From a virus (Duplodnaviria; Heunggongvirae; Uroviricota; Caudoviricetes): a stretch of 64,000 bases of DNA. Below, one piece after another: positions 8,316-63,085 of this stretch; positions within the stretch are counted from its first letter, which is position 1, and each line of letters begins with the position of its first letter. A model generated the notes under the pieces. That model did no database searches. It saw only the letters and a program-made list of their open reading frames with translations, and was not told the DNA's origin. A program made the position numbers and the translations under genes. The stretch lies in IMG/VR virus record IMGVR_UViG_3300028585_000514. One strand, given 5' to 3'.

Positions 8316-8691
8316 TGCCGATTACGATTTCCCATCGATTGAAGTCATACAGTCAGCAACAGAAGATAGTGATGTAGCAGCAAAAGCGGTGGTTGGCTAT
8401 TACGTTACTCCAATGCGCGACTTTGCCGAGCGCATTGGAAAGTACGTATACGAAATAGTGCTCAAAGAAGATGCAGTTGTAGAGGACCTTACTCTGTCGA
8501 ACATGGTCTCAATCTATGAACGAGAAAATGCTCTGTTGGAGTGGGATGATCAAGCCAAGAATTATAAAAAGCTTCGACTTGAATACCTGGCAAAAGGCGT
8601 TGATATGGTAAGCATCATCGAACATAATGGCACTTCCGGAGAAAGCTTTATCGTCAACCTCGACGCAATCGCCACCTTTACAAAACTATGA
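8293..8691 (+). CDS. putative ADP-ribosyltransferase-fold protein
   Basis: YYHGS...GYYVT...A...GKYVYEIVL...E pattern of small phage ART domains. Confidence 0.5.
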   Translation: MKYYHGSNADYDFPSIEVIQSATEDSDVAAKAVVGYYVTPMRDFAERIGKYVYEIVLKEDAVVEDLTLSNMVSIYERENALLEWDDQAKNYKKLRLEYLAKGVDMVSIIEHNGTSGESFIVNLDAIATFTKL

Positions 8692-9335
8692 TGATTGAAC
8701 AACTACTTGATGCTCTGCCAAATGGCTCAACCTTGTATCCGTACGGGTCCCGAGTCTACGGTACAACAACAGAAAACTCCGATCACGATTTTCAAATCAT
8801 CCTCGCAGATAAAGACTTTAAGCGAGAAGATTGGCGCAATGAACTTGCCGCAACTGGGCTTGATCTTCATGTGTGGAGCCATTCACAATGGGTGGATGCT
8901 TTGAACGATCATCGAGTGTATGCGTTGGAATGCTTTTACCTTCCTAAGGATAAGCAAATCAATAATTCGCTACACCTAGTCCATAAAATGAACACTATGA
9001 AATTCGGCTTCACTCTCAACAAAGCAAAGCTTCGTGAGGAGTTCTCGCGCGTGGCCTCGAACTCTTGGGTGAAGGCAAAGAAGAAGCTGATAGTTGAAGC
9101 AGACTACAACGAACGCATCGCTAAGAAGAGCATCTTCCATTCATTCCGCATCCTGGATTTCGGCGTGCAAATTGCTACTAAAGGCCGCATCGTGGATTAC
9201 AATTCAATGAATGGTATCTACTATGAAATCATGAGTCTTCCTGCTGATTGGGAGACGATTGACGCAACACTAAGAGGACGACACAATGCTCTAGCGTCAG
9301 AGTTTCGAAATGTGTGTCCCAAGGAAAAGATATGA
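8688..9335 (+). CDS. Pol-beta superfamily nucleotidyltransferase
   Basis: YGSRVYGT...SDHDF signature. Confidence 0.8.
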   Translation: MMIEQLLDALPNGSTLYPYGSRVYGTTTENSDHDFQIILADKDFKREDWRNELAATGLDLHVWSHSQWVDALNDHRVYALECFYLPKDKQINNSLHLVHKMNTMKFGFTLNKAKLREEFSRVASNSWVKAKKKLIVEADYNERIAKKSIFHSFRILDFGVQIATKGRIVDYNSMNGIYYEIMSLPADWETIDATLRGRHNALASEFRNVCPKEKI

Positions 9336-22004: not shown

Positions 22005-22376
22005 TTACCACTCCATCATTGGAGCCGTCTTACGAGACGATTGAATCTTCTTGAAATCGATGAGGAAGGCGTTGGTCGCTTGGTAGTATCGGTCGTTGAT
22101 TTCGTCGTAGAAGTCTGCAAGCTTTTCGATAAGGATTGGATTGCCATTTACGTCGATTAGAATCGATTGCTCCTGTTCACGATTGATCAGAGCAGCAACG
22201 AATGAGATTAGGGTTTGGTCAACGTGGAACACGCCACCATTTTTTGAGAAGGTCAACGCTTGCTTAAACTTTAGCTTGCTGTTTTCCTTTTGGTTGTAGA
22301 GAGTAACGCGGTACTTCGCTGCTTCGAGAGCACGTTCTAGACGCTCGTCTAGATACTTTTGGGCGTCGTCAGACAT
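22005..22376 (-). CDS. hypothetical protein leading the GT operon
   Basis: GAGG RBS; GGTATAAT -10-like element upstream. Confidence 0.75.
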   Translation of the reverse strand: MSDDAQKYLDERLERALEAAKYRVTLYNQKENSKLKFKQALTFSKNGGVFHVDQTLISFVAALINREQEQSILIDVNGNPILIEKLADFYDEINDRYYQATNAFLIDFKKIQSSRKTAPMMEW

Positions 22377-22478
22377 GATGAACCTCTATTATTTTTGTTA
22401 TGGTTATGCGGGGTTATTATACCACAAACCCTAGAACGAGTCTAGGGTTTGTTTGGTAAGACCTGTTGACTTTATTTA

Positions 22479-23801
22479 TTAAGCCAATGCAGTTGAAGCC
22501 ACCGTAGGGTAAGCCATAACCGGCGATTTTAGAACGTTTGCACTTGGGCGAACTAGGGTCGATGCTGAAGTCAAAGTACCACCAACACCGCCATACAAAG
22601 TACCAGGATCAGTGAAGACAATCTGGAATCGGACGATGCGGTTTGACTCGATGCGAGCATTAACGGTGAACACTTGCTGCGAGTTGTTCGGGTTTGCAAG
22701 AGCAAAGATCGGCTGATACGTCGCGGTTAGATCGTAGAAGCCTTTTGAGTTTGCACGATTTTGTGAGTCCACTGAGCCGGTTGCGCTGAACTTCACGGTG
22801 CCGATGTTCACTAGGAAGTCTCTCCACTGGAAGTCACGTAGAGTGCCTGGGTTACCGAGTGTCGAAACAAATTGGAACTGACCGCCGGCGTTAATGTATG
22901 CTTTCAGTGAAGCTGCATCAGCGAAGGTTGCGGTTAGTTCGCGGCTGATTGATCCGGTCCAAGTAGTTGAACGTGAAGTGGTACCAGATGCAGGCGATGA
23001 TGACTCGAGTGAAACCAAAGTTGGTTTGAAGCGAGTAGTACCAGCCGACAACGCATTCAACGCGGTTAGGGTTAGATTGTACTTAGCAAGCATAGTGACC
23101 ATGCCGTAAGGAATGGTATTGCCTTGTTCGTAGATAAAGCCTTCAGCTGAGATACCAGTCGAGTCAACACCTAGGAAGTTGCAGATTGCGGTTAGCTTGC
23201 TTAGCAACGCGATCCACTTTGCGTTGGTCAATGTGTAGATTGACTCATTCGCGATAGTATCGGTTTGACCATAGCCGAACGCGTCAGCCAAGGTGGTGCC
23301 AGTTGGAGCGCCAATGATCTTGTTGAGCGTAGCAGCCATAGCGTTGTATTCTGTAACGAACGCAGCTTTTTGCACAAGGGTGTTTGGCATTGGGTAAATC
23401 TGAACCCATGCTGAACCATCCCAAATCTTGAGCATGCCGCCAGTGGTGTCAAACCATTGGGTGCCAGTTTTTGGATTTGATGGCGCTGTTGTGCCAGAGG
23501 TGACGCCACCGCCGGCCGAACCAGCCCATGCGTTCTGTGGATCAACGGTTGCATCATAAATGCGTAGAACTTTATTTGTGGTGTCGTACCACAATTGACC
23601 AGTCACACCATTTGCTGGTGGAGTTGGCGCAGCGAAAGTCTCTAGCATCTTCAACAAGTTTTGCTGAAGGTCACGACCCCAATTTGGGCTGCCGCGGCCA
23701 GTCAGAACTAGCGAAGTGTGAGTGGTGTCTTTCGTCTGAGGTTGAACGGTGAAGCCTGGCTTATTAGCAATGCTCCAACCAAAATCGTATTGATCGCTCA
23801 A
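22479..23801 (-). CDS. virion structural protein (fibre/baseplate-like)
   Basis: Follows tail tube; repeated GQLWYDT..VLRIYD / GTQWFDT..MLKIWDG motifs; Thr/Gly/Ser rich. Confidence 0.75.
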   Translation of the reverse strand: MSDQYDFGWSIANKPGFTVQPQTKDTTHTSLVLTGRGSPNWGRDLQQNLLKMLETFAAPTPPANGVTGQLWYDTTNKVLRIYDATVDPQNAWAGSAGGGVTSGTTAPSNPKTGTQWFDTTGGMLKIWDGSAWVQIYPMPNTLVQKAAFVTEYNAMAATLNKIIGAPTGTTLADAFGYGQTDTIANESIYTLTNAKWIALLSKLTAICNFLGVDSTGISAEGFIYEQGNTIPYGMVTMLAKYNLTLTALNALSAGTTRFKPTLVSLESSSPASGTTSRSTTWTGSISRELTATFADAASLKAYINAGGQFQFVSTLGNPGTLRDFQWRDFLVNIGTVKFSATGSVDSQNRANSKGFYDLTATYQPIFALANPNNSQQVFTVNARIESNRIVRFQIVFTDPGTLYGGVGGTLTSASTLVRPSANVLKSPVMAYPTVASTALA

Positions 23802-52429: not shown

Positions 52430-52586
52430 AAAAGTGTCTCCTTTTTCTTATATGATTCGACATGATTATTTATAGAGGTGCGGAAAATTTCTTGTGGATT
52501 TTTCTGGCACCTCACACATTAACAACAATCATGGAACCGTTGTTGTTAAATATTTATAGAGAATCTGAAAATTCTCCTGACATTTT

Positions 52587-60381: not shown

Positions 60382-61179
60382 ATGGAACAAGTCACTCCAT
60401 CAGCAAATCCGCTGATGTCCAAAATCAAAATGCCAGGTCGTATCTTCCGACTACCATCTGGTGGCTATCTTTACAAGAATGGCGAGCTAAGCGAGTCATG
60501 CAAGGATGGTGAGGTTCATGTTCGCCCAATGTCGGCACTAGCCGAAATCAAGATGAAGAATCCTGATATGCTATTCTCAGGCCAAGCCGTTCGTGAAGTC
60601 CTAGCAGAATGCGTCGAAGAAATCAAGAAGCCAGATGAACTATTCGGTCGTGACGTTGATGCGCTAATGTGCTTCCTACGTGTGGTTACCTATGGTCCAG
60701 AGTTCCGCATCGAAGCAGACCATGGCTGCCAACCAGATTCAAGCGTGCATGGCTATGTGATCGACATCGAAGGCATCATCAACGCTATTCGTCAACTCGA
60801 CCCAACCACTATCGGACAGCGCTATGCGGTCAATCTGCCAAATGGTCAGGTCGTAACGCTAGACCCAATTCGCTTCAAGACCGTCGTGGAATTGATGCAA
60901 GCAAATAACAAGGACCTACCTACTGCTGAAGACATTCAGCGTAACATGATCCAGAACTTGCTGAACATGATCGCTGACATCGATGGCATCACCGATAAGG
61001 CAATGATTCAGGAATGGATCGTCAGCGCTCCAGCGCCATACATTGGCGCTATCGCTAATGCATTGGATACCTCAAATGAATGGGGTCCTAAGTTTGAACA
61101 AGAAGTCGTGTGCCGTGATTGCGGCCAAAAGATGATTGTTGAACTGCCACTTAATCCAGTAAATTTTTTTTCAGGATAA
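60382..61179 (+). CDS. baseplate hub/tail assembly chaperone (gp26-like)
   Basis: LPSGG, VRPM, DVDALMCFLRVVTYG, C-terminal CRDCG..NFF; late promoter at 60342. Confidence 0.8.
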   Translation: MEQVTPSANPLMSKIKMPGRIFRLPSGGYLYKNGELSESCKDGEVHVRPMSALAEIKMKNPDMLFSGQAVREVLAECVEEIKKPDELFGRDVDALMCFLRVVTYGPEFRIEADHGCQPDSSVHGYVIDIEGIINAIRQLDPTTIGQRYAVNLPNGQVVTLDPIRFKTVVELMQANNKDLPTAEDIQRNMIQNLLNMIADIDGITDKAMIQEWIVSAPAPYIGAIANALDTSNEWGPKFEQEVVCRDCGQKMIVELPLNPVNFFSG

Positions 61180-61406
61180 TTAAAGGCGGGAATGGTGAGC
61201 AAATCGGTTCCTATATTGCTCAATTGGGAAGCGAGACACGAGCCATTCTCCGTTCAGCAACCGAATTGGTGTACTACATGCGAGGTGGCTTGTCATATAC
61301 CGAGGTGATGGCTATGAGTGCAGGTGAGCGAGAGGTAGTTGCTTCATTCATCAATAAGGCAATGAAGAACGCGAAAGATGACCCACGCACTGTGATCATG
61401 CTTTAA
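61164..61406 (+). CDS. -1 frame extension of the chaperone (gp51/gpT-like segment)
   Basis: The -1 frame is open from the T8 run to TAA 61406; LVYYMRGGLSYTEVMAMSAGER resembles tail-chaperone C-terminal extensions. Confidence 0.7.
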   Translation, partial: FFFRIIKGGNGEQIGSYIAQLGSETRAILRSATELVYYMRGGLSYTEVMAMSAGEREVVASFINKAMKNAKDDPRTVIML

Positions 61407-61409
61407 TTA

Positions 61410-62120
61410 TCCAAACGCACAGACGTGTAGATCAGCTCGCTGATAGCACGTCTTTTGTTCGCCAGAACAAATACCAAAAATCCGATAGTGGCTCTCGCAT
61501 AAACTCCTATGTCATATAAGAGCTCTTACTAGGCCTTCTATCGGATTTGTCTCATGATGCATATCTCTGAACGACTCGCTGTCGCTCGTCAGAAGAGGTA
61601 ATTGCTGTCGCACTTCCCTCTTCTTTATTTCCCTATCGGGCTAGTTCTACTACCTATTGGTAGGGTATTCCTCGATCCTCGGGATACTATAGCGCTATTC
61701 AGCGCCAACCCCAAAAGTCTCAGCATCAGAAACTCTTGTTTTGGTTTCACTCTTCAGGATCAAATGTCGATCCAACCTGCCCAGGTACTGCTTTACCAGG
61801 AATTCGAGTGTGTTTGCGGATACAGTGACGCATACCAAGTAGGACTATTAACCAAACAATTCGTCCTACTTCCGTTATCAATCTTGTGATAACATCTGGG
61901 GAATTTATAAGCTTGAAGTCGTAAAATGCTTTTACGCTAGATAGTTTATAAAACCGAGCGGTCGCCATATGGACATTTGGGCGACTCTTCAAAACGACGA
62001 TTATGGTTCCTCTCGCGTTCTCGGGTTTGTTTATGGATTAGCAGCTCATATCCTGCACACCAACGGGCTGGTTAACGATTCACAGACCCCGAATAAATTT
62101 CTGACGTATGAGTGTAAACG
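61410..62120. ncRNA. candidate large structured non-coding RNA (or structured origin)
   Basis: ~700 nt without a credible gene, tiled by at least a dozen hairpins, several nested. Confidence 0.55.
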
Positions 62121-62153
62121 AAAAAAGCGCACGACATTATATCGTGCGCTTTT
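62121..62153. terminator. bidirectional terminator
   Basis: AAAAGCGCACGA-CATTATA-TCGTGCGCTTTT. Confidence 0.85.
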
Positions 62154-62159
62154 GGGCAA

Positions 62160-62405
62160 TTACATGCCTTGTTTGCGAGCTGCCTTCTTCAACTGCTTGT
62201 AAACACCGCGTGCCGAATTCGGATTCACCATCAGGGTGCCTGGTAGGTACTTGATCTGTGGTGGGTTCTCGAGCACGCCTTCCTTAGCTTCAGGAGCAGC
62301 TTCAATGACGAAGCGCTTCGAGTTGCCTAGGTACTTGGTGCTGAATGCTTCGGTTGCCATGGTGGCAGCTAGTTTACGTAGTTTCTTTGCGGTTTTGGAG
62401 TTCAT
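62160..62405 (-). CDS. small basic hypothetical protein
   Basis: MNSKTAKKLRK..RGVYKQLKK; CTA-rich codons. Confidence 0.7.
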   Translation of the reverse strand: MNSKTAKKLRKLAATMATEAFSTKYLGNSKRFVIEAAPEAKEGVLENPPQIKYLPGTLMVNPNSARGVYKQLKKAARKQGM

Positions 62406-62551
62406 TTGAAAAGGTCTCTTTGTTATTTTTATATGTGAGTATGGGCGAATACATTTGCGTACTCAACCCCATGAAACGAACCACAGACATTGCATCTTGA
62501 TTCTTTGTTTCATGGTGATGAATTATACACCGCTTTCCGTCAAGGGACGAT

Positions 62552-63085
62552 TTATTTCATCCAAAAATCTGCGTGTTTGATTAGGTCCTCAAAGTGGCAG
62601 ACTTTGATCCCTTCCAAGATCGTAATGTGCTTCACATCCTCTGGTAGGACGATGTCAGGCTCAACAGCAGCGTAGATAGGAGTGTTGTTGAATTTGAAGA
62701 TAAGGATACCACGCTTATCCACTTTAGCAGCATCTGTCGCCGCCTCTCGCATCCAGGAGTAGATGTGTGACGTACCAAACAGAGCTTCCATACGTTCGGC
62801 TTCTTTGTAGAACTTGCACTCAACGACGAAGTTGAATCGTGGATTACCATCAACACACTCGTTGGTTGGTACAACGTCTCCGGTGAACAGAGCGAGAGTG
62901 AGCTTGCTATAGTCGCCCGCTGTTTTCGCATTCATCCCGCCGACGATTGCGCCTGACATTTGACTCTTCTTGAATTTGAGTGGTGCTAGAGCTGCGGTTA
63001 GAATCTTGCTAACCTTCAGTTCAAATGCACCACCCTTTGCTTTGCCGTTAACCTTCTTCTTTACGGTCTTCTTTTCTTCGGTCAT
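62552..63085 (-). CDS. Holliday junction resolvase (Hjc-like PD-(D/E)XK)
   Basis: GKAKGGAFELKV, GDV, VECK. Confidence 0.8.
   Translation of the reverse strand: MTEEKKTVKKKVNGKAKGGAFELKVSKILTAALAPLKFKKSQMSGAIVGGMNAKTAGDYSKLTLALFTGDVVPTNECVDGNPRFNFVVECKFYKEAERMEALFGTSHIYSWMREAATDAAKVDKRGILIFKFNNTPIYAAVEPDIVLPEDVKHITILEGIKVCHFEDLIKHADFWMK

Follow-up and report, generated by a model that had tools for sequence, protein, structure and literature searches.

The gene-free interval and its flanking genes

The window (the whole 64,000-nt stretch of DNA analyzed here) comes from a T4-like jumbo myovirus, as indicated by its gene matches and by portal, prohead protease, and scaffold genes at 51.5-56 kb. 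The nearest cultured match of its hub protein was in Ralstonia phage RsoM2USA (51%), and the phage is a jumbo myovirus and kin of RsoM2USA. Its DNA was present in leaf-litter metagenomes. When gaps were measured between ORFs of at least 100 aa, the longest in the window was 753 nt (61407-62159). The initial annotation had described this gap as by far the longest; it does rank first, but the next gaps were 682 and 566 nt. The following features lie in or beside it.

60382-61179, with a putative -1 frameshift extension to 61406, plus strand: gp26-like baseplate hub gene (PHROG 150), left flank, convergent with the RNA described below
61410-61530, no strand assigned: lineage-specific hairpins, unconserved in relatives
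62123-62153, minus strand: intrinsic terminator of the upstream RusA/81-aa ORF transcript (terminator scan), directly before the RNA 5' end
62160-63085, minus strand: 81-aa ORF and RusA-like resolvase gene, right flank, on the same strand as the RNA

To the right of the gap are the RusA-like resolvase gene, a gene annotated as RNA ligase, and an SbcC-like gene; no tRNA genes were detected in the window by ARAGORN. An ORF of 213-224 aa belonging to no known family separates the RusA gene from the 81-aa ORF in L005, L006, L008, L001, and L127 and is absent from the window (62405-62552). The T4-late-type promoter motif NATAAATA occurs at 23 sites in the window and precedes late genes, for example at 52474, 54363, 56077, 59895, 59919, 60341, and 63549.

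The 3' end of the hub gene (61164-61406, plus strand) contains a run of eight T, after which the -1 frame continues without a stop for 76-82 aa and keeps a conserved sequence; this held in all 25 relatives in which the end motif was found (four of 29 were unmatched and left out). The arrangement resembles the programmed -1 frameshift of tail chaperones, with the annotated 60-aa ORF as the tail of the extension; a literature search gave no account of a -1 frameshift in a hub gene. Five ORFs of 41-95 aa overlap the gap itself. They carry stops or frame breaks where aligned to the closest relatives, which argues against the conserved short protein that had been considered for this region, and the two that were tested had no match in PHROG.

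Folding energy and terminators

The inverted repeats listed in the initial annotation were present at their positions, and nearly all fell within predicted folds. The folding energy of 61410-62155 (746 nt) was -232.8 kcal/mol on the plus strand (z -8.1) and -250.6 kcal/mol on the minus strand (z -7.2), with none of 20 shuffles as low. Because both strands fold significantly, energy does not choose between them. The score of the full interval is also inflated by the unconserved hairpins at 61410-61530 and by the terminator. The conserved part alone (61530-62116, minus strand) gave z -3.1 (0/100 shuffles), a modest value that is expected since much of the fold consists of pseudoknots.

The hairpin at 61421-61453 and its T-run are probably the terminator of the plus-strand hub transcript. 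At the other side, a bidirectional terminator had been proposed as the end of the element. The terminator hairpin at 62123-62153 was recovered, but the terminator scan called it on the minus strand only, which places it on the 5' side of the RNA and not at its end. A similar hairpin with a U-run was found in L005, L006, and L008.

Relationship to EGFOA

No Rfam family matched the window at the gathering cut-off. At a loose threshold, the best match was EGFOA (RF02955) on the minus strand at 61905-61763, with 24.5 bits (E 0.054) against a cut-off of 37.7; the best-scoring jumbo relative, L038, reached 30.4 bits, also under 37.7. The EGFOA motifs CCCAG, CGUC, GGUAAAGC, and ACCUGG were present in order on one strand, with GCGUC in place of CCGUC, and the three-way-junction fold of the family, with loop pairings to two upstream strands, was found in the window. 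The side hairpin of the EGFOA model is missing from the window and present in L038, L062, L074, L078, and L127. Location in a large gene-free region is given as an EGFOA feature in the accessible part of a preprint (bioRxiv 10.64898/2026.07.01.735769), and the 753-nt gap agrees with it. Canonical EGFOA loci reached as much as 43 bits with a covariance model made from the jumbo copies alone, and five loci that exceeded the EGFOA cut-off came out of the first pattern scan.

On these sequence comparisons, we conclude with high confidence that the element represents an enlarged, divergent EGFOA-type RNA on the minus strand, running from about 62114 to at least 61530. Since it scores below the Rfam cut-off, it is classed as an EGFOA variant and not as a plain member. 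The initial annotation had compared it with GOLLD and ROOL; neither model matched at E up to 10, and EGFOA takes their place as the family. No match was obtained with the ARRPOF model or with the ribozyme families of Rfam.

Conserved structure on the minus strand

Covariation across 11 relatives bore out the large, multidomain structured RNA proposed in the initial annotation. Paired positions were left free in the search patterns, and the alignments were made from sequence only. The features of the RNA are as follows.

61530-62114, minus strand: conserved span of the EGFOA-type RNA, from alignments; the 5' end is near 62114, and the 3' end is uncertain and may reach about 61420
61905-62112, minus strand: jumbo-specific 5' domain, in which 62107-62112 pairs with 62045-62050 as a pseudoknot, alongside hairpins, a three-way junction, and, at 61971-61976, a loop of the AUGUCC type
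61740-61900, minus strand: EGFOA-like core
61896-61900 with 61780-61784, minus strand: core pseudoknot PK-B
61823-61826 with 61787-61790, minus strand: core pseudoknot PK-A
61790-61797, minus strand: GGUAAAGC loop of the core
61806-61810 with 61748-61752, minus strand: closing helix of the core
61850-61855 with 61741-61746, minus strand: jumbo-specific pseudoknot PK-C, found by RNAalifold
61692-61706, minus strand: conserved GCGC-closed hairpin, GNRA-capped in several relatives
61605-61634, minus strand: purine-rich arm (26/30 purines), candidate RNA-DNA hybrid zone
61574-61589, minus strand: ColE1-type tandem-GA hairpin CGAGC-N4-GCGAG, in 5/11 jumbo members, candidate single-strand primosome/helicase loading signal
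61535-61550, minus strand: conserved 16-nt motif, in 6/12 members, no partner strand found

The core alignment of 11 sequences contained eight helices, including three pseudoknots, with 96.3% of cells paired (slid controls, 27-38%) and changes on both sides in 18 of 33 pairs, a number reached in none of 500 shuffles. Across 26 loci (11 jumbo and 15 canonical EGFOA), PK-A paired 4/4 in 25 and PK-B paired 5/5 in all, with compensatory changes throughout the family; the one PK-A miss, L026, has a variant anchor that the script did not accept, and PK-B partners were taken as the best upstream match. PK-C showed 6/6 Watson-Crick pairs in 11 of 12 members at a fixed distance of 24-25 nt. The compact nested pseudoknots of the core included invariant unpaired bases. 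In the 5' domain, 18 of 30 pairs had double changes (six sequences); the AUGUCC-like loop was present in 12/12 members, and the 5' pseudoknot in 5/12, with one compensatory change. A pairing between the AUGUCC loop and the stretch that follows the GCGC hairpin was considered and rejected, no covariation being seen by eye. The purine fraction of the arm was 0.57-0.66 in 10 of 11 members and 0.50 in L127. Twelve other viral matches to the 16-nt motif look like chance.

Four-base loops of the GNRA/UUCG type occurred in the jumbo copies 13 times in 50 on the minus-equivalent (GGUAAAG) strand versus once on the opposite strand, and in canonical EGFOA 18 versus 2 times in 75, in favor of the same GGUAAAG strand. 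Together with the EGFOA match and the G-U pairs of a pseudoknot, these loops indicate the minus strand, opposite to the plus-strand RNA behind the chaperone gene that had been proposed. The alignments point, with high confidence, to a conserved multi-pseudoknot fold on the minus strand.

Transcription

Seven metatranscriptome runs were examined as contigs, at a phage depth of 2-5. The X14 RNA library contained two contigs of single-read length over 61832-62114, X4 contained one over 61384-61534, and the other five runs had no contigs listed at the locus. Such contigs carry no strand, ends, or level, so missing coverage was not counted either way, and the three that were found point weakly to transcription of the element. 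A scan limited to sigma-70-type promoters gave no site for the RNA. The sequence TATAAATT at 61909 (minus strand), likened to the late promoter-like motif, was rejected: its last base, in the window as in close relatives, is T and not A, and it forms the 3' strand of a hairpin. Terminator-like hairpins were found by script 284-338 nt past the core in three of 11 members (L062, L074, and L127), and these suit a discrete RNA.

Distribution among relatives

Searches by hub protein and by DNA pattern yielded 11 distinct relatives carrying the element. It lies beside the hub gene in L005, L006, L008, L038, L001 (RsoM2USA), L062, L074, and L127; at another site, upstream of an ORF recognized by eye as topoisomerase II, in L018 and L024; and on a short contig in L078. 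RsoM2USA was reached through its hub protein, and blastn searches of the GenBank phages with the interval, the L062 RNA, or two canonical EGFOA loci as query gave chance matches or none. Four of eight matches in the metagenome pattern scan were unrelated and were dropped before counting, leaving L078 as the only new one; most of the 33 matches in another pattern scan were also unrelated, and only L127/L138 was new. At least 120 matches came from the GTDB pattern scan; among those listed, 91 failed three pairing tests and 29 passed, and L206 and L221 were restored by eye.

The core covariance model found one strong copy in each of eight carrier records among 33 searched. It found none in XacN1, Xoo-sp13, RAS14, or four of five near-complete relatives, one of these four giving a chance-level match (E 0.06). 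Gaps near the same site in XacN1, Xoo-sp13, and RAS14 were rejected as counterparts (z -1.4 to -2.8, no model match). On the hub tree, the nine carriers among 28 rows require at least three gains or losses, and this patchy presence marks the element as accessory.

ORFs matching phrog_5104, HNH-like by eye, lie directly upstream of the RNA in two relatives (L024:1821-2504 and L038:5372-6235) and may mobilize it. Other unusual regions were noted in related genomes. G023 carries long tandem arrays of paralogues of about 200 aa with a common N-terminal motif (280-305 kb and 346-348 kb); RsoM2USA has related ORFs near 65-67 kb, and three other relatives lack them. Multi-kilobase stretches free of ORFs, which could be tRNA arrays, repeats, or other RNAs, occur in G017 (153.9-159.7 kb) and G011 (246.8-250.8 kb).

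EGFOA neighborhoods elsewhere

On viral contigs, canonical EGFOA was found near genes for DNA polymerase, helicase, RNase H, exonuclease, terminase, or portal. Among the GTDB matches listed, 21 loci had flanks, and in seven of these a tyrosine integrase gene lay no more than 2.6 kb away; genes for Rep, ParA, RNase H, or a helicase-like protein were nearby at single loci. Four plasmid records contained EGFOA above the cut-off: one has it between repA and parA, a second just before parA, and a third next to a tubulin-like (TubZ-type) gene, while the fourth is a 15-kb element without an annotated Rep. No protein family was constant beside EGFOA. When gene content was compared between two genomes with the RNA and three without it, 21 common ORFs emerged from the RsoM2USA side, none near the RNA. 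A packaging RNA, considered on account of copies by terminase or portal genes in L011, L027, and L020, was rejected: the loci are too few, and the window does not show this arrangement. One Peribacillus deserti contig has two EGFOA copies 1.6 kb apart (L266 and L267). In gut phages L085-L105, canonical EGFOA occupies a gap of about 1.9 kb between the endolysin and DNA polymerase genes and is followed on the same strand by repeated C-GAA-G mini-hairpins.

Candidate origin signals and skew

The ColE1 record contains RNA I on the minus strand (645-749), so the primer RNA is on the plus strand. That strand has a G-run near 1175, a DnaA-like box at 1271, and then, at 1331-1343, the only CGAGC-N3/4-GCGAG match in the record, a hairpin that we take to be the ssiA/pas primosome assembly site. 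The ColE1 likeness remarked on in the initial annotation therefore stands, and the window motif lies on the RNA's own strand, about 210 nt downstream of the core. Relaxed to GAGC-N3/4-GCGA, the motif occurred at +192 to +226 in 5/11 jumbo loci versus 0.07 expected; six loci, RsoM2USA included, had none, although a GCGAAGCG hairpin takes its place in two of these. In canonical EGFOA, strict GAGCGNAGCGA occurred on the sense strand at +150 to +185 in 5/45 loci versus 0.03 expected, and 1, 0, and 0 times in three control windows. Because the motifs were chosen once the sequences had been looked at, and related loci do not count as independent, the P values are too small, and these counts are a lead and not proof.

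Six Bacillales plasmids and small viruses have further elements past EGFOA on its own strand: a G-tract that hardly varies, a hairpin whose GNA loop sits on varying stems, and a single DnaA-like box or a pair of them (called with the DnaA box consensus). GNA-triloop hairpins numbered 22 in the downstream sense position versus 8, 5, and 2 elsewhere; 29 of 45 canonical loci had none downstream. A G-tract was found in six of 45 canonical loci and in 0/11 jumbo loci, which have the purine-rich arm only, and a DnaA-like box in one of 11 jumbo loci and not in the window. Most canonical loci, those of Actinomycetota above all, had none of these signals. The conserved Bacillales unit of about 450 nt comprises EGFOA, a C-run/G-run hairpin, the G-tract, the GNA hairpin, and DnaA-like boxes, and is carried by Bacillales plasmids and 10-15 kb Zot-ATPase elements (L273:12040-12520, L272:22360-22860, L271:8440-8920, L274:7960-8460, L096, and L100). 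Its carriers include a Paenibacillus durus DSM 1735 element (NZ_CP009289.1, about 8440-8920, minus strand) and a Brevibacillus borstelensis plasmid (NZ_CP144923.1, about 22360-22860). MOB-suite gave no replicon type for the plasmid records carrying it, and the unit is a candidate for an undescribed replicon type.

Skew was computed at fourfold-degenerate sites. In RsoM2USA, the best-fitting switch, modeled as a bidirectional origin, fell on the RNA (rank 1 of 172). In G023, the RNA site ranked 30 of 181, or 90 with majority-strand genes only, and in the RNA-free G017 the best fit likewise lay no more than 11 kb from that site. For four small phages with EGFOA, the analysis gave GC-skew ranks of 13/67, 31/76, 4/49, and 13/47 and TA-skew ranks of 61/67, 50/76, 8/49, and 10/47. 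Cumulative skew in two small plasmids was set aside as uninformative, being monotonic and tracking gene direction. The skew evidence is mixed, and module boundaries could yield the same pattern.

A possible pre-primer RNA and alternative explanations

The explanation that we favor, while rating it a little short of probable, is that the minus-strand EGFOA-type RNA would be a pre-primer resembling ColE1 RNA II, forming an R-loop at an accessory replication origin of the jumbo phage. The oriented DNA signals after EGFOA in plasmids and phages suggest a primer RNA for replication, and comparison adds the fold, the strand, the EGFOA kinship, the single copy per genome, and the same-strand ColE1-type hairpin downstream of the core. 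In ColE1, according to the accessible text of one account, the RNA primer is processed by RNase H and extended by Pol I, exposing a primosome assembly signal (PMC3167613). Here, the RNA would be transcribed leftwards from near 62114. Its folded 5' domain and core would keep the purine-rich 3' arm free, the arm would stay on the template as an R-loop, RNase H would trim the RNA to a 3'-OH primer, and the CGAGC-N4-GCGAG hairpin, laid bare on the displaced strand, would serve as a primosome/helicase loading signal. The combination of RNA-type loops in the core and DNA-type GNA loops downstream is the pattern expected of an R-loop primer with a displaced strand. The replication, partition, and integrase genes near some EGFOA copies and the skew switch on the RNA in RsoM2USA also speak for this reading. 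As in T4, such an origin would be one of several and hence dispensable: the accessible part of one T4 study describes at least five origins, two of them (oriF and oriG) with R-loop primers and near switches of transcription direction (PMC3016281), so patchiness does not exclude an origin role. Against the pre-primer reading, a terminator lies immediately before the RNA 5' end and no sigma-70-type promoter was found; the window has neither G-tract nor DnaA-like box, six of 11 jumbo loci lack the ColE1-type motif, and skew is mixed; other EGFOA copies lie by terminase or portal genes, and one plasmid has its own RepA. A broader proposal is possible but more tentative: EGFOA may be the conserved core of cross-phylum RNA-primed, initiator-independent origins in plasmids, integrative elements, and phages, which RsoM2USA-like jumbo phages would have expanded to a primer RNA of 600-1100 nt with four pseudoknots.

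The main alternative, a real possibility though not a probable one, is an accessory RNA acting in trans. Such a transcript would be stably folded, perhaps oligomeric, and would bind a conserved host factor as a decoy or scaffold; it would be exchanged as cargo and sometimes spread by a neighboring HNH nuclease. Patchy presence with at least three gains or losses, the two members at another site, the HNH-like ORFs directly upstream in L024 and L038, and the terminators that close the RNA in three of 11 members all suit it, as does conservation of the core across phyla, which fits a conserved binding partner. Two short EGFOA RNAs appear as a trimer and a dimer in cryo-EM in the accessible part of the preprint (bioRxiv 10.64898/2026.07.01.735769), but the oligomers were made in vitro at about 3 mg/mL. 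The gene-content comparison gave no partner gene, and an accessory RNA leaves unexplained why a G-tract, GNA hairpins, and DnaA-like boxes follow EGFOA in a set orientation. Compact nested pseudoknots with invariant unpaired bases are the design of known self-cleaving ribozymes, and the EGFOA core could on that ground be a ribozyme or a module for RNA processing, acting by self-cleavage or as a nuclease roadblock to mature or stabilize phage transcripts. We regard this as improbable, given that no ribozyme family matched in Rfam and EGFOA often lies outside operons; the accessible preprint text, moreover, describes complete transcripts purified after 8-10 h in 20 mM Mg and mentions no cleavage there (bioRxiv 10.64898/2026.07.01.735769).

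An origin made of single-stranded DNA hairpins, with no functional RNA, had been put forward in the initial annotation as its alternative. Part of that proposal held, as the ColE1-type hairpin is present on the RNA strand and recurs downstream of EGFOA elsewhere; besides, covariation hardly separates single-stranded DNA from RNA motifs, as stated in the accessible text of PMC5737381. The purely DNA-level version is nevertheless unlikely: the core loops are of the RNA type (GNRA/UUCG), with DNA-type GNA triloops outside the core, EGFOA folds as RNA in cryo-EM according to the accessible preprint text (bioRxiv 10.64898/2026.07.01.735769), and RNA-library contigs, weakly, cover part of the element. 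The RNA and origin readings may instead be two halves of one ColE1-like system. Least probable of all, and largely refuted, is a GOLLD/ROOL-like RNA made from the plus strand downstream of the chaperone gene, or a gene for a small protein. The equally significant plus-strand folding energy and the five overlapping ORFs would allow either, but the strand evidence, the absence of GOLLD/ROOL matches, and the broken ORFs oppose them.

EGFOA has a cryo-EM structure and no known role, and this locus is its largest form in the present analysis, in a clade with a cultured member. The oriented ColE1-like signals after EGFOA sit in small, tractable plasmids. If the pre-primer reading is true, RNA-primed origins with a conserved tertiary fold would reach far past enterobacterial ColE1 plasmids and offer small protein-free replicons, the element would be the first origin candidate for these jumbo phages, and a folded RNA of ribozyme size would start phage DNA replication. 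No statement of an origin or primer role was found in the literature on EGFOA/RF02955, although the supplements of the 2017 paper defining EGFOA and of the preprint may mention plasmids or origins; the accessible text of the RsoM2USA paper (PMC8504454) has no mention of non-coding, intergenic, or origin terms.

Comparison with known systems

The jumbo RNA shares with EGFOA the same motif order on one strand (CCCAG, CGUC-NNNG, GGUAAAGC-NNN-ACCUGG), the same two pseudoknots, and a host range of mobile elements. It is longer, at about 580-700 nt or, judged from the gap, about 1100 nt in RsoM2USA, versus 108 model positions; it has an additional 200-nt 5' domain and two extra pseudoknots, and a GCGC hairpin takes the place of the C-run/G-run hairpin of canonical copies. 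GOLLD and ROOL are likewise large, ornate, phage-borne RNAs of unknown function, and the size is near that of ROOL (581 nt), whereas neither model matched and the window has no tRNA genes.

ColE1 RNA II is about 550-600 nt long, similar to the element, and in both a structured RNA is followed by a same-strand CGAGC-N3/4-GCGAG hairpin (5/11 jumbo members); the Bacillales EGFOA loci also share the G-tract and DnaA-like boxes. In contrast, no sequence homology to ColE1 was found, no RNA I-type antisense RNA was detected here, and the jumbo copy lacks the G-tract and DnaA boxes. The oriF and oriG origins of T4 are transcript-primed and belong to a large T4-like myovirus, and the present element also lies where transcripts converge; there, as far as the accessible text goes, a promoter plus about 100 bp of unwinding element suffice with no conserved RNA fold, whereas no sigma-70-type promoter was found here. 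ARRPOF, a 255-nt RNA of a Fusobacterium plasmid, has no Rfam match at this locus. According to the accessible parts of two reports, it is a multi-pseudoknot RNA in a gene-free region, forms dimers, and is needed for Rep-independent plasmid replication (PMC5737381, PMC12990946), and it thereby sets a precedent for pseudoknotted RNAs in regions that replicate independently of Rep.
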